Shown here: one piece after another, positions 19,094 through 27,881 of the stretch
Layout of the letters: every line of letters starts with the position of its first letter
Position numbering within the stretch: the stretch's first letter is position 1
NCBI GenBank assembly: GCA_035690485.1
Contig: DASSKL010000008.1
Coordinates: 62,586-126,585 of the forward strand
DNA length: 64,000 nt
From: Mycobacteriales bacterium
Lineage (GTDB): Bacteria > Actinomycetota > Actinomycetes > JAFAQI01 > DASSKL01
Direction of reading: 5' to 3'
The notes under the pieces: model-generated
Database searches by the model: none
What the model saw: only the letters and a program-made list of their open reading frames with translations
Told to the model about the DNA's origin: nothing
Program-made: the position numbers and the translations under genes

Positions 19094-19171
19094 ACCCGTG
19101 TACGGGGGTGACCCGGAGGCCGGGTGGAAAGATGGCAGACGACCCCCGACGTCGTGGGAGAGGAAGCCGAC

Positions 19172-20551
19172 GTGGCGAGCACGCAATCCGCCGACCTCGT
19201 GATCCTCGGGGCCGGTAGCGGGGGCTACGCCTGCGCCCTGCGCGCGGCGGAGCTGGGCATGTCGGTCGTCCTCGTCGAGCGTGACCGCGTCGGCGGCACC
19301 TGCCTGCATCGCGGTTGCATCCCGACGAAGGCCTTGCTGCACGCCGCCGAGGTCGCCGACTCCGCACGGGACAGCGAGGCCGTCGGCGTACGCGCCACGC
19401 TCGACGGCATCGACATGGCCGGCGTCAACGCCTACAAGAACAAGGTGGTCGAGCGGCTCTGGAAGGGGCTGACCGGGCTCATCAGCTCCCGGAAGATCAC
19501 GGTCGTCGAGGGTGAGGGCCGGCTGGTCGCGACCAACGCCGTCCAGGTGGGTGACGACCGGTTCGAGGCCGGCCGGGCGGTCGTCCTCGCCAGCGGGTCG
19601 CAGTCGAAGACGCTGCCCGGGCTGGAGGTCGACGGCGAGCGCATCATCACGAGCGACCAGGCGCTGACCCTCGACCGGGTGCCGTCGTCGGTGGTCGTGC
19701 TCGGCGGCGGGGTCATCGGCGTGGAGTTCGCCAGCGTCTGGCGGTCGTTCGGCGCCGAGGTGACGATCGTCGAGGCCCTCCCGCACCTGTTGCCGGCCGA
19801 GGAGGAGTCGAGCTCGAAGCTGCTCGAGCGGGCGTTTCGCAAGCGGGGCATCGGCTTCAAGGTCGGCGTGCGCTTCTCCGACGTGAAGGTCACCGACTCC
19901 GGTGTCGCCGTCTCGCTGGAAAGCGGCGAGACCGTCGAGAGCGAGCTGCTGCTCGTCGCCGTCGGGCGAGGCCCGGTGTCCGACGGGTTGGGTTACGCCG
20001 ACAACGGCGTCGAGATGGACCGCGGCTACGTGCTCGTCGACGACTACTGCCAGACCAACGTGCCGGGCATCTACGCACTGGGCGACCTGCGGCCCGGCTT
20101 GCAGCTCGCCCACGTCGGCTTCGCCGAGGGGATCATGGTCGCCGAACGGATCGCCGGGCTCAACCCGGCCCCGGTCGACTACGTCAACGTGCCGCGCATC
20201 ACCTACTCCGACCCCGAGGTCGCCTCGGTGGGGCTGACAACCGCCCAGGCGAAGGAACGCGGGATGGAGACCGTCGAGGTGACCTACGACCTCGCCGGCA
20301 ACGGCCGCGCCCAGATCCTCCAGACATCCGGCGCGGTCAAGGTCATCGCCGCCAAGGACGGACCGGTGATCGGCGTACACATGGTCGGCGCTCGCGTCGG
20401 CGACCTCATCGCCGAGGCTCAGCTCATCACCAACTGGGAGGCGCTGCCCGCCGAGGTCGCCCAGCTCATCCACCCGCACCCGACGTTGTCCGAGGCGTTG
20501 GGCGAGGCGCATCTCGCGCTCGCCGGCAAGCCGCTGCACACCCACGGGTAG
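19172..20551 (+). CDS. lpd: Dihydrolipoyl dehydrogenase (E3)
   Basis: GAGSGGY FAD motif, redox-active CLHRGCIPTK, NADH GGGVIGVEFA, C-terminal HPHPTLSE. GTG start preceded by GGGAGAGGAAG. The ORF extends to an ATG at 19124. Confidence 0.9.
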   Translation: MASTQSADLVILGAGSGGYACALRAAELGMSVVLVERDRVGGTCLHRGCIPTKALLHAAEVADSARDSEAVGVRATLDGIDMAGVNAYKNKVVERLWKGLTGLISSRKITVVEGEGRLVATNAVQVGDDRFEAGRAVVLASGSQSKTLPGLEVDGERIITSDQALTLDRVPSSVVVLGGGVIGVEFASVWRSFGAEVTIVEALPHLLPAEEESSSKLLERAFRKRGIGFKVGVRFSDVKVTDSGVAVSLESGETVESELLLVAVGRGPVSDGLGYADNGVEMDRGYVLVDDYCQTNVPGIYALGDLRPGLQLAHVGFAEGIMVAERIAGLNPAPVDYVNVPRITYSDPEVASVGLTTAQAKERGMETVEVTYDLAGNGRAQILQTSGAVKVIAAKDGPVIGVHMVGARVGDLIAEAQLITNWEALPAEVAQLIHPHPTLSEALGEAHLALAGKPLHTHG

Positions 20552-20605
20552 GACGGTCGGAGAACCCGCCGCCCACCCGGTCGACCGAAGGAGCACGCAG
20601 CACCC

Positions 20606-22141
20606 ATGGCCGTCTCCGTCACCATGCCACGCCTCGGCGAGAGCGTGTCCGAGGGCACGATCACCCGCTGGTTGAAGAAGGAGGGCGAGCACGTCGAGGC
20701 CGACGAGCCGCTGCTCGAGGTCTCGACCGACAAGGTCGACACCGAGATCCCCTCACCGGCCTCGGGCGTGCTGACCGCCATCAAGGTCGCCGAGGACGAG
20801 ACCGTCGAGATCGGCGCCGAGCTGGCCGTCATCGACGAGACAGGCGGCGCGGAGACGACCCAGGGCACCGTCGACGTGACCGCGCAAGAGCAGTCGCGGC
20901 AGGCAGGCGCACCGGCCCCCGCCCCGCAGCAGCAGCCCGAGCAGGCCGCCGAGGAGCAGGCACCGCCCGCGGAGCCGGTGCCGCAGCAGCCGGCCGCCCA
21001 GCAGGCACCCCCACCACCCCCGCAGCAGGCACCCCCACCACCCCCGCAGCAAGCACCCCCGGCTCCCCCGCAGCAGGCGCCACCGGCCGTGGCGCAGCAA
21101 CCGGCGCAGCAGGCACCCCCGCCCGCGAGCGACGGGCAGGCGAGCGATGCGGCGTACGTCACCCCGCTGGTCCGCAAGCTGGCGGCCGAGCACGGCGTCG
21201 ACCTGGAGCAGATCCAGGGGACCGGTGTCGGCGGGCGCATCCGCAAGCAGGACGTGCTCGACGCCGCCCGTACCGGCGGGGCCGCACCGACCAACGCGCA
21301 AGCGCCCGCTGCGCAGGCCGCTCCCCCGCAGCAACCGGCGGCCCCATCGCAGCCGGCAGCCGCCCGGCCGGCCGGCGCCCCCCCGGCGCAGCGGCCCGCA
21401 GCGGTCGGGCCGACGCCCGCGCGCGGCCACACCGAGACCCTCTCCCGGCTGCGCCGGGTCATCGCCGAGCGCATGACGGAGTCGCTGCAGACCAGCGCCC
21501 AGCTCACCACCGTCGTCGAGGTCGACGTCACCCGGATCGCCCGGCTGATCGACGTCGCCCGCCCCGATTTCGAGGCCCGTGAGGGCGTGAAGCTGCGCTA
21601 CCTGCCGTTCTTCGCCCTGGCCACCTGCGAGGCGCTGCGGGCACACCCGGCGGTCAACGCGTCGATCGACACCGACGCCGGCACGGTGACCTACCACGAC
21701 TCCGTGCATCTCGGGGTGGCCGTCGACACCGACCGCGGGCTCCTGGTGCCGGTGATCAGGGACGCCGGCGACCTCAACATCGCCGGCCTGGCCCGCAAGA
21801 TCGCGGATCTGGCCGAACGCACTCGCGGCAACAACGTGAGCCCCGACGAGCTCGGCGGCGGCACGTTCACACTGACCAACACCGGCTCGCGGGGCGCGCT
21901 GTTCGACACCCCGATCATCAACCAGCCGCAGGTCGGCATCCTCGGGACCGGGGCGGTCGTGAAACGGCCGGTCGTCGTCGAGGACCCCGAGCTCGGAGAG
22001 GTGATCACGATCCGCTGCGTGATGTATCTCGCCTTGACCTACGACCACCGGCTCGTCGACGGGGCCGACGCCGCACGCTTCCTCGGCACGGTCAAGGAGC
22101 GGCTGGAAGCCGGCGACTTCGCCGCGGACCTCGGCCTCTGA
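20606..22141 (+). CDS. sucB: 2-oxoacid dehydrogenase E2 (dihydrolipoyllysine-residue succinyl/acetyltransferase, DlaT/SucB-like)
   Basis: Single lipoyl domain ([13 protein letters not shown], lipoyl-Lys), a Pro/Ala/Gln linker, a peripheral subunit-binding domain ([34 protein letters not shown]) and a catalytic domain ending [14 protein letters not shown]. Confidence 0.9.
20999..21094 (+). repeat. In-frame 24-nt tandem repeats (about 4 copies) encoding QQAPPPPP units in the E2 inter-domain linker
   Basis: cagcaggcacccccaccacccccg is repeated exactly twice, then appears as two degenerate copies. Confidence 0.8.
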
Positions 22142-22142
22142 C

Positions 22143-23072
22143 GTGCGCATCGTCGTCACCGGGGCATCGGGCCTGCTCGGGCCCCGGTTCGTCGACCAGA
22201 TGCGCGGCGCGGGCCACGAGGTGCTGCGCCTCGTGCGACGCGCGCCGGCGTCGGCGGACGAGCGCACCTGGGATCCGGCCGCCGGACGCCTCGACCCTGC
22301 GATCTTCGAGGGCGTCGACGCGGTCGTGCACCTGTCCGGCGCCAACCTCGGCGACAAGCGCTGGACCGGCGAGTACAAGCAGGTGTTGCGCGACAGCCGC
22401 ATCGTCAGCACCGGCCTGGTGAGCCGCACGCTGGCCGACCTGCCGCACCCGCCCGGGGTCCTCGTGTGCGCGTCGGCGGTCGGCTACTACGGCGACTGCG
22501 GCGAGCGGCACGTCGACGAGACCGCCCCACCGGGAGAAGGCTTCCTCGTCGACCTCGTCGTCGACTGGGAGCGGGCGACGGCACCCGCGTCCGAGGCCGG
22601 GGTCCGCGTCGTCCTCATGCGCAGCGGGATCGTGCTGGCGCCGGACGGAGGCGCCCTGAAGAAGATGCTGCCGATCTTCAAGGCCGGCCTCGGGGCACGC
22701 CTCGGCTCCGGGCAGCAGTGGTGGAGCTGGATCGCCGTGCACGACCAGCTGGCCGCGATGCGCTACCTCGTCGAGAACGACGCAGTCCGGGGTCCGGTCA
22801 ACGTCGTGGCGCCGCACCCGGTGCGCAACGTGGAGTTCACCCGGTCGCTGGCCCGCGCGCTGCACCGGCCGGCCGCCCTGGCCGCGCCGGCCTTCGCGCT
22901 GCGGCTGCTGTTCGGCGAGCTGGCCGACGCCGGGCTGCTCTGGAGCCAGCACGTCGTGCCGCAGGCCCTCCTCGACGCCGGGTTCAGCTTCCGCCATCCC
23001 GATCTCGACGGCGCCCTCGCCAGCCTGCTCCAGCAAGACGGCCCCGCCCCGCGCCCCGCGGCCGAGGGCTAG
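22143..23072 (+). CDS. TIGR01777-type epimerase-family protein (NAD-binding Rossmann plus DUF1731; Rv2216-like)
   Basis: MRIVVTGASGLLG Rossmann N-terminus, ~309 aa, C-terminal DUF1731-like. It sits right after E2, as in mycobacterial synteny. GTG start 2 nt after the sucB stop. Confidence 0.8.
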   Translation: MRIVVTGASGLLGPRFVDQMRGAGHEVLRLVRRAPASADERTWDPAAGRLDPAIFEGVDAVVHLSGANLGDKRWTGEYKQVLRDSRIVSTGLVSRTLADLPHPPGVLVCASAVGYYGDCGERHVDETAPPGEGFLVDLVVDWERATAPASEAGVRVVLMRSGIVLAPDGGALKKMLPIFKAGLGARLGSGQQWWSWIAVHDQLAAMRYLVENDAVRGPVNVVAPHPVRNVEFTRSLARALHRPAALAAPAFALRLLFGELADAGLLWSQHVVPQALLDAGFSFRHPDLDGALASLLQQDGPAPRPAAEG

Positions 23073-24304
23073 GCCGGCTGCACCGACCACAGCCGCCAGC
23101 CGTCCGCTTCACGCTGCACGACGACCGTCCAGGTCCGCGCCGGCCGCGGCGCGACGTGCTCGAGGACCCGCCCGCCCGCGGTGACGACGTCGTACGCCGA
23201 GAGCGTGTCGGTGACTGCCAAGGTGACCCGGCCCGCCGCGGCGGACACGGCTCGGACGGCGAGCACGGAGCTTGCGTAGCCGGGGACCGCCGCCGCCCCG
23301 GCCGCGCGCCACCGTTGCACGGTGCCGACGTCGGCCGCACGTTGCGGGGCGGCACCGGCATAGACCGCGGTGAGCGCGACCGGATCGAGCCGGCGGATCG
23401 CCGTCACGCGGCTCGCGACCAGATCCGCCACCACGGCCGACCAGTCAGGCCCTCGCGACAGGTGCGCGGGAGACGGCCGCGAACGACCGTGACCGGCCAG
23501 CACCCCGAGCACGACCCCCGCGCCAGCCACCAGCGCCAGCAGGGCCACCGCCGGCCAACGTCGGGTCGCGCCGCCCGGCTGCGCGCGAGACGCCGGTGCG
23601 GGTGACGCGTGGACCGGCTCCTCCTCCTGGCCGGCCTGCCCCGGCGGCAGGCCAGCAACAGTGACTACCGGCGATGTCACGTCGACTGCGGCCGCGAGCG
23701 CCGCACCGAGCTCGACCATGGTCGGCCGCTCTGCGGGTGGGGCGTGCGCGGCGGCGCGCAGCACCTCCTGCGGCGCTCCGGCGGCATAGCGCAGGCAGAG
23801 CAGCGCGATCGCCCGGACATCGCCAGCCGGACAGGGTGGCTCATCGGCGTATGGGCTGCGGTGCGCGGTGCCGTCGAGCGCACCGAGCAACCGCGTGACG
23901 TCGACGTCGAGCAGCAGCCGACCGTCCCCCACCAGGACGTTGGCCGGAGTCAAGGCACCGTGCACGGTCCCCTGCGCGTGCAACCGGGCCAGGGCGACCG
24001 CCAGGGCCGCGAAGTGCGCCAGTGGCTGGGATCCCGCCGCCCGCAGGCTGCCCCCGACCGCGAGATCGGTGACCACCGCGACCTCGCGCCCGGACGTCAC
24101 GAGGCCGCGCAACGTCACGTAGCCCGCATCGGGCAGGTCCGCGGCCAGCAACCGCTCGGCCGCGCGGCGGGCGACCGCCGGCCGGAGCCGCCGGAGCATC
24201 CGCGCGGCGCCGGTCGACGTCTCGACGGCCGACCACGCCTCACCCGCGGGGCCGACACCGAGCAGCCGGTCGAGCCCGTAGCCGGGGAACTCAGGCGACG
24301 TCAT
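23069..24304 (-). CDS. Membrane-anchored protein with N-terminal degenerate Ser/Thr-kinase-like (pseudokinase) domain, one TM, C-terminal extracytoplasmic domain
   Basis: Start MTSPEFPGYGLDRLLGVGPAGEAW (Gly-rich-loop-like). The catalytic loop reads HGALTPANVL instead of HRDLKPxN, and no VAIK lysine is present. TM WPAVALLALVAGAGVVLGVLAG, then a ~150-aa domain. Only the 3' third of the 1115-aa ORF 23069..26416 is used. Confidence 0.6.
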   Translation of the reverse strand: MTSPEFPGYGLDRLLGVGPAGEAWSAVETSTGAARMLRRLRPAVARRAAERLLAADLPDAGYVTLRGLVTSGREVAVVTDLAVGGSLRAAGSQPLAHFAALAVALARLHAQGTVHGALTPANVLVGDGRLLLDVDVTRLLGALDGTAHRSPYADEPPCPAGDVRAIALLCLRYAAGAPQEVLRAAAHAPPAERPTMVELGAALAAAVDVTSPVVTVAGLPPGQAGQEEEPVHASPAPASRAQPGGATRRWPAVALLALVAGAGVVLGVLAGHGRSRPSPAHLSRGPDWSAVVADLVASRVTAIRRLDPVALTAVYAGAAPQRAADVGTVQRWRAAGAAAVPGYASSVLAVRAVSAAAGRVTLAVTDTLSAYDVVTAGGRVLEHVAPRPARTWTVVVQREADGWRLWSVQPA

Positions 24305-24373
24305 GAGGGCGATGCAACCAGCGACGGCCGACGGTCGGCGTTCGCTGTCCACAGGCCGTCCGGCGGGCAGGGC

Positions 24374-25546
24374 ATGATGGCCGGCGTGCGGACGCTGAGC
24401 CAGCAGGAGCAGGACATCGTCGACGTCGTCACGGAGTTCGTCGACCGGCAGGTGAAGCCGGTCGCCCGTGACCTGGAGCATGCCAACACCTATCCGGACA
24501 AGTTGATCGCCACCATGCGCGATCTCGGAATCTTCGCGTTGGTGATCCCGCCGGACTACGGCGGCATCGGCGTGTCGACCCCGTGCTTCGCGGCGGTGAC
24601 CGAGGAGCTCGCGCGCGGCTGGATGACCCTCGCCGGTGCCATGGGCGGGCACTCCGTCGTCGCGACCATGCTGCGGCTGTTCGGCACCGAGGAGCAACGA
24701 CGGCGCTACCTGCCGCGGATGGCGACCGGTGAGATCCGCGCCGCGATGGCCCTCACCGAGCCGGGCGGCGGGTCGGACCTGCAGGCGATGCGCACTCGCG
24801 CGATCCGGCAGGCGGACGGAGACTACCTCGTCAACGGTACGAAGATGTGGATCACCAACGCCCGCACGGCCGGGCTGATCGCGCTGCTCTGCAAGACGAA
24901 TCCCGATGCCAGCCCGTCGCACCGTGGCGTGAGCATCCTGCTGATGGAACCGGCGTACGGCTACGAGGTCTCCCGCGACCTGCCGAAGCTCGGCTACAAG
25001 GGCGTCGAGACCTGCGAGCTGGCATTCGACGACGTGCACGCCCCCGGTGACGCGCTGCTCGGCGGCGAGGAGGGGCAGGGCTTCGCACAGTTCATGAAGG
25101 GTCTCGAGCTCGGCCGGATCCAGGTCGCCTCCCGCGGGGTCGGCGTCGCCCAGGCCGCGCTCGACGACGCGCTCGCCTATGCCCAGCAGCGGGAGAGCTT
25201 CGGCGTGCCGATCTGGGAGCACCAGGCGGTCGGCCACCAGCTCGCGGAGATGGCGACGAAGACCGAGGCCGCGCGCCAGCTGGTGCTGCACGCCGCGCAG
25301 GTCTTCGACACCGGGGCCCGCGCCGACCTCGAGGCCGGCATGGCCAAGCTGTTCGCCTCGGAGATCTGCATGCAGGTGACCCTCGACGCGATGCGGGTGC
25401 ACGGTGCGGCGGGTTACTCGACCGAGGTCGACATCGAACGCTACTTCCGCGACGCCCCGCTGATGATCGTCGGCGAGGGCACCAACGAGATCCAGCGCAA
25501 CGTCATCGTGCGCCAGCTGATCGCCCGCGCGCAGCGAGGCGGCTGA
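24374..25546 (+). CDS. Acyl-CoA dehydrogenase
   Basis: 390 aa with ALTEPGGGSDL, YLVNGTKMWITNA and the C-terminal catalytic region with IVGEGTNEIQR. ATG at 24374 inside the longer ORF 23609..25546. Confidence 0.85.
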   Translation: MMAGVRTLSQQEQDIVDVVTEFVDRQVKPVARDLEHANTYPDKLIATMRDLGIFALVIPPDYGGIGVSTPCFAAVTEELARGWMTLAGAMGGHSVVATMLRLFGTEEQRRRYLPRMATGEIRAAMALTEPGGGSDLQAMRTRAIRQADGDYLVNGTKMWITNARTAGLIALLCKTNPDASPSHRGVSILLMEPAYGYEVSRDLPKLGYKGVETCELAFDDVHAPGDALLGGEEGQGFAQFMKGLELGRIQVASRGVGVAQAALDDALAYAQQRESFGVPIWEHQAVGHQLAEMATKTEAARQLVLHAAQVFDTGARADLEAGMAKLFASEICMQVTLDAMRVHGAAGYSTEVDIERYFRDAPLMIVGEGTNEIQRNVIVRQLIARAQRGG

Positions 25547-25570
25547 CGCTCCGCGGCGTAGCCTCGAACC

Positions 25571-26218
25571 ATGGCCGGCATCGCGTTCGTGCACCCGGGA
25601 CGGGTGCCCTACCTTGACGCCTGGCAGCAGCAGCAGGAGCTGCACGCCCGACGGGCCGCCGGCGACGTCGGCGACAGCGTGCTGCTGCTGGAGCACGATC
25701 CGGTCTACACCGCGGGCCGGCGCACGTCGGCCTTCGAGCGACCCGCCGGCGACCCCGGTGCACCGGTCGTCGACGTCGACCGCGGCGGCAAGATCACCTG
25801 GCACGGCCCCGGGCAGCTGACCGGCTACCCGATCGTCGCGCTGCCCGAACCGCTCGACGTCGTGTCCTACGTCCGCCGCCTGGAAACCGCGCTCATCGGC
25901 ACCTGCGCGGATCTCGGCCTCGCCACGGTCCGGGTCCCCGGCCGCAGCGGCGTCTGGGTGCCGGCCGACGGGAACGGCCCCGACCGCAAGGTCGCCGCGA
26001 TCGGCGTGCGGGTCGCCCGCGGCGTGACGATGCACGGATTCGCGCTCAACTGCGACTGCGACCTCACGTGGTTCGACCGCATCGTGCCGTGCGGCATCAC
26101 CGACGCCGGCGTGACCTCGCTCACCCGCGAGCTCGGCCGTCCCGTCACGGTGGCCGACGCGATGCCCGTCGTGGAACGCCACCTGCTCGCCGTCCTGGAG
26201 CCCGACCTTGTCGGCTGA
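25571..26218 (+). CDS. lipB: Octanoyltransferase LipB
   Basis: [20 protein letters not shown], the catalytic Cys region [10 protein letters not shown]. 215 aa. Confidence 0.9.
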
Positions 26219-27167
26219 GGCACCCGACACCGCGATCGGGCCCGACGGCCGCCGGCTGCTGCGGCTGGAGGTGCGCAACGCCGCCGTACCGATCGAGCGC
26301 AAGCCCCCCTGGATCAAGACGCGCGCCCGCATGGGCCCCGAGTTCGCCGCGCTGAAGTCGATGGTCCGCTCCGAGGGCCTGCACACGGTCTGCGAGGAAG
26401 CAGGCTGCCCCAACATCTACGAGTGCTGGGAGGACCGGGAGGCGACGTTCCTCATCGGCGGCGAGCAGTGCACCCGGCGCTGCGACTTCTGCCAGATCGC
26501 CACCGGCCGCCCCGCACCGCTCGACCGCGACGAGCCGCGCCGCGTCGCGGAGTCCGTGCAGGCGATGGGGCTGCGCTACGCGACCGTCACCGGCGTGACG
26601 CGCGACGACCTGCCCGACGGCGGTTCGTGGCTGTACGCCGAAACCGTGCGGCAGATCCATGCGCACGTGCCCGGCTGCGGGGTCGAGGTGCTGATCCCCG
26701 ACTTCGACGGCATCCCGGAGCAGCTCGCCGAGGTCTTCTCGGCCAAGCCGCAGGTGCTCGCCCACAACGTCGAGACCGTGCCCCGGATCTTCCGCCGGAT
26801 CCGGCCGGGATTCCGCTACCAGCGCTCGCTCGACGTGCTGACCGCCGCGCGCGCGGCCGGGCTGGTCACGAAGTCAAACCTCATCCTCGGCCTGGGCGAG
26901 GAGCGCGCCGAAGTCGTCGAGACCATGCAGGCGCTGCACGCCGCCGGCTGCGAGCTGTTGACGATCACGCAGTACCTGCGCCCCTCACCCCGCCACCATC
27001 CCGTCGTGCGCTGGGTGCACCCGGACGAGTTCGTCGAGCTGGCGCGGGAGGCCGAGCAGATCGGCTTCATCGGCGTGCTCAGCGGTCCGCTGGTGCGCTC
27101 GTCGTACCGCGCCGGACGCCTCTACAGCCAGGCCGTCGAGGCTCGCGGCACGCGCACGTCGGGCTGA
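26208..27167 (+). CDS. lipA: Lipoyl synthase LipA
   Basis: [13 protein letters not shown] and [10 protein letters not shown] radical-SAM/auxiliary cluster motifs. N-terminus ...[12 protein letters not shown] matches mycobacterial LipA. Apparent TTG start overlapping the lipB stop. Confidence 0.9.
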
Positions 27168-27191
27168 CCAGGCCTCACCCGGGCCGACCGT

Positions 27192-27881
27192 ATGCTGGCC
27201 GGCATGGCCCGAGACGACTCCAAATCCGGCGGCCGGCTCGAGCAGATCAAGCTGGTCTACTCGTTCACCCGCGAACGCGACCCCCAGATCCTGCTCTGGA
27301 TCGCGCTGCCGGCGATCGCCATCTTCGCCGTGCTGCTGGCACTCGGCTTCGTCTTCGGGCACCCGATCTACCTCGGCGTGATCGGGTTCATCGCTGCCCT
27401 GCTCTGGATGACCAGCATCTTCGGTCGCCGCTCGATGTCTGCGCAGTACGCCAGTGTCGAGGGCCAGCCCGGCGCCGCGGCCGCCGTCCTGTCCTCGCTG
27501 CGCGGCACGTGGAAGGTGCAGCCCGCGGTCGCGCTCAACCGCAACCAGGACCTCGTGCACCGCGCGGTCGGCCGGCCCGGCATCGTGCTCGTCGGCGAGG
27601 GCGCACCGAGCCGGGTGGGGCCGCTCATCGCCCAGGAGCGCAAGCGGGTCACCCGGATCGCGGGCGACATCCCGATCTACGAGGTGCAGGTCGGCGCCGA
27701 AGAAGGTCAGGTCGACCTGCGCAAGCTGCAGGCGCACCTCGGCAAGCTGCCGCGCAACCTCAAGCCGCGTGAGGTCGACGCGGTCGACAACCGGCTGCGT
27801 GCACTGGGTGGCGCCGCCATGCCGGTGCCGAAGGGCCCGCTCCCCCGCGGCGGCCGGATCCCGCGCGGCAAGATGCGCTGA
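27192..27881 (+). CDS. DUF4191-family membrane protein (Rv2219-like)
   Basis: Basic N-terminus, two TM helices. It follows lipA as in mycobacteria. The start may be ATG 27192 or 27204. Confidence 0.75.
   Translation: MLAGMARDDSKSGGRLEQIKLVYSFTRERDPQILLWIALPAIAIFAVLLALGFVFGHPIYLGVIGFIAALLWMTSIFGRRSMSAQYASVEGQPGAAAAVLSSLRGTWKVQPAVALNRNQDLVHRAVGRPGIVLVGEGAPSRVGPLIAQERKRVTRIAGDIPIYEVQVGAEEGQVDLRKLQAHLGKLPRNLKPREVDAVDNRLRALGGAAMPVPKGPLPRGGRIPRGKMR

Follow-up and report, generated by a model that had tools for sequence, protein, structure and literature searches.

A predicted receptor-type pseudokinase from an uncultured Mycobacteriales bacterium, belonging to an actinobacterial receptor-kinase family at the lipB/sucB locus

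RESULTS

A complete gene under constraint at the lipB/sucB locus

We analyzed a 64,000-nt window (the whole stretch of DNA considered here) from contig DASSKL010000008.1 of assembly GCA_035690485.1, a metagenome-assembled genome (MAG) of an uncultured member of the Mycobacteriales, and focused on a minus-strand gene that encodes a predicted membrane-anchored pseudokinase. The gene lies between a convergent TIGR01777 gene, next to sucB, and a divergent acyl-CoA dehydrogenase (ACAD) gene (Table 1). Its product consists of an N-terminal kinase-like domain, a linker, a single transmembrane (TM) helix, and a C-terminal domain of NTF2-like fold. The open reading frame (ORF) assigned by the original prediction, which had been made from the DNA alone, stands with its coordinates: its product is identical to NCBI entry HET7405792.1 ('hypothetical protein VFJ21_01470', Mycobacteriales MAG), and the ATG at 24304 matches the N-termini of all close homologs (M-T-S-P-E-F-P-G-Y) and of the distant full-length ones.

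Table 1. Features of the predicted pseudokinase and of the genes beside it, in window coordinates
Feature	Position	Strand	Remarks
Pseudokinase gene	23069..24304	-	Complete, 411 codons and stop; bitopic receptor-type pseudokinase
Kinase-like (pseudokinase) domain, residues 1-217	23654..24304	-	AlphaFold2, Foldseek, and profile alignment to genuine Pkinase proteins; putatively cytoplasmic
Gly-rich loop G16-V-G-P-A-G21	24242..24259	-	Intact GxGxxG; invariant in the clade; G1/G2/G3 columns conserved in the family
Arg38 at the beta3 VAIK Lys position	24191..24193	-	L-R-R-L against V-A-L-K-R-L in the alignment; invariant in the clade
Catalytic loop H115-G-A-L-T-P-A-N122	23939..23962	-	Ala117 replaces the catalytic Asp; Asn122 kept
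D133-V-D135 in place of DFG	23900..23908	-	Metal-binding Asp kept; second Asp invariant in the clade
Juxtamembrane linker, residues 218-249	23558..23653	-	Pro/Ala/Gly/Glu-rich; predicted disordered; length and sequence vary among homologs
TM helix W250-G271	23492..23557	-	R248-R249 just before; Kyte-Doolittle peak; conserved in the clade
NTF2-like domain, Tim44/ARC6 subgroup, residues 284-411	23072..23455	-	Fold-based assignment; putatively extracytoplasmic
TIGR01777 / Rv2216-like epimerase-DUF1731 gene	22143..23072	+	Pfam; convergent with the pseudokinase gene
sucB (SucB/DlaT-like E2)	20606..22141	+	One lipoyl domain by Pfam
Divergent intergenic region, pseudokinase/ACAD	24305..24373	.	69 bp
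ACAD gene	24374..25546	+	Divergent from the pseudokinase gene; all three ACAD Pfam domains significant

The gene is contained in a 1115-aa ORF (23069..26416), and it had been considered that the region might be only the non-coding tail of this larger frame. The codon-position G+C contents do not bear this out. Read from 24304 down to 23069, the pseudokinase frame has G+C contents of 0.82/0.60/0.87 at the first, second, and third codon positions, as in the flanking genuine genes. Upstream of ~24304, the 1115-aa frame has a higher G+C content at the first position (~0.9) than at the third (~0.65-0.8), which mirrors the plus-strand ACAD and lipB genes as their antisense shadow, and the signature changes sharply at the pseudokinase start codon. 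The 1115-aa ORF is an artefact of high G+C.

A word-indexed homolog search found four close relatives of the pseudokinase (61-99% identity), and the frame is intact in all of them. The pairwise ratios of nonsynonymous to synonymous substitution rates (dN/dS) are 0.24-0.35 for the kinase-like part, which is the most constrained, 0.32-0.48 for the C-terminal domain, and 0.36-0.80 for the linker, which has the highest value of the three regions in two of three comparisons. The values below 0.5 in both folded domains indicate purifying selection on both. The pseudokinase diverges faster than the neighboring genes (73% identity against 81-95%). The pseudokinase ORF is a real gene under constraint.

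The N-terminal domain is modeled as a Hanks-type kinase fold

The similarity of the single sequence to protein kinases is below the usual thresholds. A Pfam scan of the single sequence gave PF07714 (PK_Tyr_Ser-Thr) at E=0.19 (11.4 bits against a cutoff of 23.1), below the gathering threshold, and did not report PF00069. NCBIfam gave a sub-threshold match to Bud32 (E=2e-4) that covers ~45 catalytic-loop residues. In the PDB, the best sequence match of the query alone had E=0.003. The Pfam and NCBIfam matches were not taken as evidence by themselves; the basis of the kinase assignment is profile homology together with the predicted fold.

A profile built from five members of the clade that comprises the query and its close relatives was used in an exhaustive HMMER search of 1.84 billion representatives with a cut-off of E<=1e-3. 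The search retrieved 2221 proteins, many of them matched end to end (positions 1 to ~410) and 400-550 aa long. A significant Pkinase domain (E 1e-20 to 1e-40) is present in nine of the ten family matches scanned with Pfam, eight of them full-length proteins and one carrying the domain inside a longer protein. Against the PDB, the family profile matches M. tuberculosis PknA, PknE, PknB, and PknI, with E values from 1e-35 to 1e-28.

AlphaFold2 was run on a 35-row alignment and gave a model with a mean predicted local distance difference test (pLDDT) score of 81.9. In residues 1-217, the block-mean pLDDT is mostly 75-96 but falls to 53 at 141-150, and the model contains beta1-3, a short alphaC, beta4-5, alphaE, the catalytic loop, the D-x-D motif, alphaF, and alphaH/I in a bilobal kinase fold. 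The top 50 Foldseek PDB matches of this domain are all protein kinases, the best being M. tuberculosis PknI and eukaryotic kinases (E ~4e-9). As modeled, the N-terminal domain is a Hanks-type kinase-fold domain, and the Gly-rich loop, the catalytic-loop-like segment, and the DFG replacement lie where the original prediction had seen them.

The catalytic motifs are degraded in part

Alignment to active relatives places Arg38 and Ala117 at the VAIK lysine and the HRD aspartate, and the earlier statement that both residues are missing is correct. In the same alignment, a five-column deletion in the query removes the column of the alphaC glutamate, eight residues are deleted after a GGSL motif, and the C-lobe is short by ~29 residues, including the alphaG region. 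The alphaD region is also shortened, both in the alignment and in the AlphaFold2 model, and in the model no alphaG helix follows alphaF (159-173) before the two final helices. The Gly-rich loop, Arg38, Ala117, Asn122, Asp133, Asp135, and the deletions are all invariant in the clade. The original prediction had mentioned neither the alphaC glutamate and alphaG deletions nor the retention of Asn122 and Asp133, nor the glycine that occupies the position of the HRD arginine throughout the family.

Two of the three triad residues (the VAIK lysine and the HRD aspartate) are thus substituted, and only Asn122 and Asp133 remain of the canonical set of beta3 Lys, alphaC Glu, HRD Asp, Asn, and DFG Asp. 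As judged from these motifs, the protein is a pseudokinase by the usual definition, though not a fully degraded one. Canonical phosphotransfer is predicted to be impossible without the catalytic base, with arginine in place of the lysine, with the alphaC glutamate deleted, and with alphaG missing. Nucleotide binding may still occur, because the Gly-rich loop, Asn122, and Asp133 are kept. By analogy with what has been proposed for DYD pseudokinases, Arg38 could pair with Asp135. Within the family, D-x-D is confined to the small query clade, and the combination of Arg38 with a D-x-D motif ending in Asp135 is found only there and in one further protein (P0031).

A TM helix connects the kinase-like domain to an NTF2-like domain

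The single TM helix proposed earlier is present: W250-G271 is the sole strong Kyte-Doolittle peak (>1.6, up to 2.6), and AlphaFold2 places a helix at 254-268 within this segment. Two marginal hydrophobicity windows (1.67) lie at residues 199-201 inside the kinase domain. The pLDDT is below 50 across residues 218-281, except at residue 257. With one TM helix and no signal peptide, the protein would have its N-terminal domain in the cytoplasm and its NTF2-like domain outside.

The C-terminal domain is modeled with high confidence (pLDDT ~95 at residues 284-411) and consists of three helices and a six-stranded curved sheet, the arrangement of an NTF2-like cone fold. The NTF2-like appearance noted in the original prediction is therefore supported, while the size given there (~150 aa) has to be reduced to ~128 aa. 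The query domain has no significant match to the NTF2-clan families of Pfam (DUF4440, SnoaL); sub-threshold matches to DUF4440 occur in 11 of 22 homologs, with a best E value of 0.0076. A PDB profile search with the domain returned spurious matches only (a WD40 protein and AhpC), and a fold search was needed. The conserved polar and aromatic residues of the outer domain are kept family-wide, including in the query clade. Among the closest relatives of this domain in structure, the ARC6/PARC6 domain binds the C-terminal peptide of a partner, Tim44 binds membranes and partners, and the CaMKII hub oligomerises kinases. We infer by analogy that the outer domain would be a binding or dimerisation module.

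The kinase gene occupies a fixed chromosomal slot

A metagenome scan yielded 80 family loci, and the following counts are over informative loci only. The lipB gene lies upstream of the kinase gene on the opposite strand in 43 of 57 loci, and TIGR01777 lies downstream in convergent orientation in 37 of 45. In relatives at 31-32% identity, the gene order is DUF4191 <- lipA <- lipB <- / -> kinase / <- TIGR01777 <- sucB <- lpd. In 13 loci, 87-106 bp separate lipB from the kinase gene; elsewhere one or a few unrelated genes intervene (gaps of 0.8-4.9 kb). In the window, the stretch 19124..27881 corresponds to these loci, and the query gene lies in the slot between lipB-lipA-DUF4191 and TIGR01777-sucB-lpd. 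Many metagenome contigs from actinobacteria have the same slot, as does Kocuria kalidii. The conserved neighbors are thus genes of lipoylation and 2-oxoacid dehydrogenases (E2/E3), not cell-wall genes.

The divergent neighbor named in the original prediction is a genuine ACAD gene. It stands beside the kinase gene only in the query clade (loci L001-L004), where it separates the kinase gene from lipB as an insertion specific to this clade. The prediction had regarded both the ACAD gene and the kinase gene as inserted relative to mycobacterial synteny. This holds for the ACAD gene, but the kinase gene is a conserved resident of the slot in most related metagenome loci and in Kocuria. Its description as an insertion is literally true against the M. 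tuberculosis order (Rv2215-Rv2218), in which the kinase gene is absent, but the picture is misleading, and the absence from M. tuberculosis may be the derived state.

The stop-codon ends of the TIGR01777 and pseudokinase genes overlap by 4 bp, as they also do in L001 and L003, and no terminator-like hairpin was found at these convergent ends. A consensus scan of 22900..24600 found no match to a sigma70 promoter or a terminator. Searching the 64-kb window with the hidden Markov model (HMM) of the family found no second kinase. In sucB, an unusually long Pro/Ala/Gln-rich linker with PPPPQQA-type repeats is encoded at ~20900..21400, and the local G+C content reaches 0.80.

A kinase-like gene also occurs beside another E2 gene. 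In Nocardioides allogilvus (L005 9962..10891) and in L006, a gene for a 309-aa kinase-like protein directly follows a different E2 acyltransferase gene and shares its strand. The protein has H-G-A-L-T-P-A-N-V-L (Asp replaced by Ala) and keeps the lysine and D-V-G. Kinase-like and E2 genes are paired here for a second, independent time.

Catalytic residues are lost repeatedly in the receptor-kinase family

By full-length sequence comparison, the query is an in-place ortholog of a large unnamed family of actinobacterial receptor Ser/Thr kinases. The family architecture consists of a kinase domain, a linker, one TM helix, and a ~130-aa NTF2-like domain, and the query fits it over the full alignment (HMM positions 1-411). 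Databases call the members, such as MDX6273623.1 (Frankiales), HEX6921803.1, and P0194 of Kocuria kalidii, only 'protein kinase' or 'hypothetical protein'. The query clade shares with the family full-length homology (E 1e-34 to 1e-15 against the clade profile), domain order, locus, and the glycine of H-G-D. It differs in having arginine for the lysine, alanine for the aspartate, D-x-D for D-L-G, a shorter C-lobe, the 5-residue alphaC deletion, the 8-residue deletion after GGSL, and the ACAD gene alongside.

A glycine occupies the arginine position of HRD in 141 of the 154 top family matches (consensus H-G-D). The beta3 lysine, the catalytic aspartate, the asparagine, and the DFG aspartate are all kept in only 84 of the 154, so that ~45% of the top matches are without at least one catalytic residue, in many different combinations; the further losses in some members include the DFG aspartate and the asparagine. 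Degenerate members at the same locus include L008 (HGS/EFG), L059 (HGN), L070/71 (HGS/EPE), and L076 (HGN, with Asn replaced by Ala). The 548-aa 'hypothetical protein' P0194 of Kocuria kalidii (L091 7001..8647, JBISWJ010000040.1) is encoded between lipB and sucB and has no Pfam match, but hhalign assigns it to the family with a probability of 99.8%. It has a long N-terminal extension and is degraded further, with arginine at beta3, H-G-G, glutamine in place of the asparagine, and the DFG region gone. These sequences suggest that catalytic residues disappeared independently in many family lineages, with no loss of the fold, the TM helix, or the outer domain. The patterns used in the metagenome scan favor catalytically intact members, and the fraction of pseudokinases at the locus is therefore underestimated.

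A scan of genome contigs with query-clade patterns gave only three distant matches (two from Nocardioides, one from Bryobacter). One 184-aa protein (P0305; L010, ENA contig_63820) has the appearance of a stand-alone NTF2-like protein. Its neighbors sucB, lpd, pepA, and gcvT are all fragmented, and a frameshift has probably split it off from a full-length kinase. Short proteins that match the C-terminal domain alone are therefore not counted as a separate architecture.

DISCUSSION

A probable transmembrane signaling pseudokinase and its alternatives

We consider it probable, though well short of certain, that the protein is a non-enzymatic transmembrane signaling pseudokinase and an in-place ortholog of the receptor-kinase family of the lipB/sucB locus, a function that we infer from its parts. 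The outer NTF2/Tim44-like domain would bind a peptide, a protein, or a hydrophobic ligand, or would dimerise, or both, and its state would be passed across the membrane through the TM helix and the disordered linker. The dead kinase domain would then have no enzymatic role; it would be a docking or allosteric module, or would accept phosphate from active kinases. Several observations weigh against this account. Loss of the catalytic aspartate does not prove zero activity, and the dN/dS values of 0.24-0.48 indicate only moderate constraint. The charges flanking the TM helix are ambiguous for orientation. The pseudokinase gene is on the strand opposite to all its neighbors, and in a core region of high synteny a fixed position does not necessarily imply a functional link to lipoylation.

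The alternative that survives best, although we think it unlikely, is that the protein is an atypical but active kinase or ATPase that binds ATP through Arg38, Asp135, Asn122, Asp133, and the Gly-rich loop and performs a non-canonical transfer (compare DYD, WNK, CASK, and POMK). The invariance of the Gly-rich loop, Asn122, and Asp133 in the clade fits such an activity, as does the degree of constraint, which is greatest in the kinase-like domain. The beta3 arginine and the D-x-D motif mirror the DYD family, for which ATP binding has been modeled (PMC12599244). However, the position of the base is occupied by alanine, the region of the alphaC glutamate is deleted, the alphaD and alphaG regions are shortened, and the HRD aspartate that is lost in the query is kept in DYD kinases. 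In addition, independent members of the family have also lost the DFG aspartate and the asparagine, which argues that catalysis is dispensable in the family.

A more specific version of the signaling account, to which we attach a small probability, is that an ancient receptor (pseudo)kinase of the lpd-sucB-lipB-lipA module couples an outside cue to lipoylation or to the assembly or activity of 2-oxoacid dehydrogenases. By analogy, the cue would be read by the Tim44/ARC6-like domain as a peptide- or lipid-binding domain. Coupling that needs no phosphotransfer would explain why fold, TM helix, outer domain, and locus stay although catalytic residues were lost repeatedly. It is only the gene position that suggests the link to lipoylation and 2-oxoacid dehydrogenases, and the opposite strand of the gene and the general synteny of the region make this link improbable.

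The original prediction had stated that pseudokinases of this kind are scaffolds for forkhead-associated (FHA) domain proteins in cell-wall synthesis, which amounts to an analogy with MviN and is not supported here. A phospho-dependent scaffold of the MviN type, recruiting an FHA-domain protein for cell-wall control, would be compatible with a membrane-anchored actinobacterial pseudokinase that has Thr/Ser residues in its juxtamembrane linker (T209-S-P-V), but we regard it as very unlikely. Within the clade, the Thr/Ser residues of the linker show no conservation, and the neighboring genes are those of lipoylation and E2/E3. No MviN structure is among the top 60 PDB sequence or profile matches or the top 50 Foldseek matches. 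With a GarA-FHA sequence as the phmmer query, the 64-kb window yielded no FHA ORF, although partners need not be linked. MviN-type membership was rejected, since the protein has no MurJ domain and its motifs are degraded differently, with the DFG aspartate kept.

Finally, a decaying remnant or the non-coding tail of the antisense ORF is scarcely credible and was rejected: the lost motifs, the several internal deletions, the lack of a Pfam match, and the faster evolution would suit decay, but four lineages, down to 61% identity, keep an intact frame, the degenerate motifs are invariant, dN/dS is below 0.5 in the folded domains, AlphaFold2 models these domains confidently, and the third-position G+C content is that of coding DNA with a shift of signature at the start codon.

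Significance of the family

The pseudokinase of the window is, as an individual gene, an ordinary degenerate member of its family, and it is the family pattern that is new as far as checked. What appears to be new is the combination, in one receptor-kinase family, of a fixed locus, recurrent catalytic loss, and a Tim44/ARC6-like outer domain. In the full-text literature, we found no account of a kinase or pseudokinase at the lipB/sucB locus, nor of an NTF2-like sensor on an actinobacterial Ser/Thr kinase. A recent bacterial kinome atlas and a pseudokinase review make no mention of NTF2, SnoaL, DUF4440, lipoate, or gene neighborhoods. Active and dead orthologs alternate at one chromosomal position, which provides a natural series for asking what role remains for a receptor kinase that can dispense with catalysis. 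In actinobacteria, central carbon metabolism is already under kinase control through PknG and GarA/OdhI, and the family allows a test of a second, membrane-linked input to it. The gene in the window comes from an uncultured MAG, and the degenerate ortholog in the cultured Kocuria kalidii offers an organism in which the family could be studied.

Comparison with known systems

PknI (PDB 5m06-5m09, 5xka) is the best structural match of the cytoplasmic domain and, like the predicted protein, is a single-TM receptor-type actinobacterial kinase. The identity is only 21-23%, and the fold matches listed for the C-terminal domain include no PknI chain. For the C-terminal domain, the comparison is with eukaryotic organelle proteins, namely the intermembrane-space domains of ARC6/PARC6 and the C-terminal domain of Tim44, at 9-16% identity and with no detectable sequence homology.

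Bacterial Hanks-type pseudokinases have been catalogued only recently, in seven families, almost none with a known function, and MviN (Rv3910, ActPs3) is the only well-studied actinobacterial precedent (PMC12599244). MviN and the query are both actinobacterial and membrane-tethered, with a catalytically dead Hanks-type domain. MviN is a fusion to a MurJ flippase in which all three motifs are degraded and aromatic residues fill the ATP pocket (PMC12599244), whereas the query is a bitopic receptor that keeps the Gly-rich loop, the asparagine, and the DFG aspartate and so does not follow the ActPs3 pattern.

DYD pseudokinases are membrane-associated actinobacterial proteins with arginine for the beta3 lysine, no alphaC glutamate, and D-x-D for DFG, in which the second aspartate of D-x-D has been proposed to pair with the beta3 arginine (O'Boyle et al., 2025; PMC12599244). 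The query resembles them in its membrane association, in Arg38, in the missing alphaC glutamate, and in D133-V-D135. By elimination from the text of the Atlas (PMC12599244), DYD is the single family among the seven in which the HRD aspartate is kept, whereas the query has Ala117, and the middle residue of D-x-D in the query clade is V, L, or P, not Y. With DYD compared by description only, the likeness looks convergent, an analogy and not a membership, because D-x-D within the family of the query occurs only in the small query clade. The pseudokinase adds a case that is not listed among the seven catalogued families (PMC12599244).

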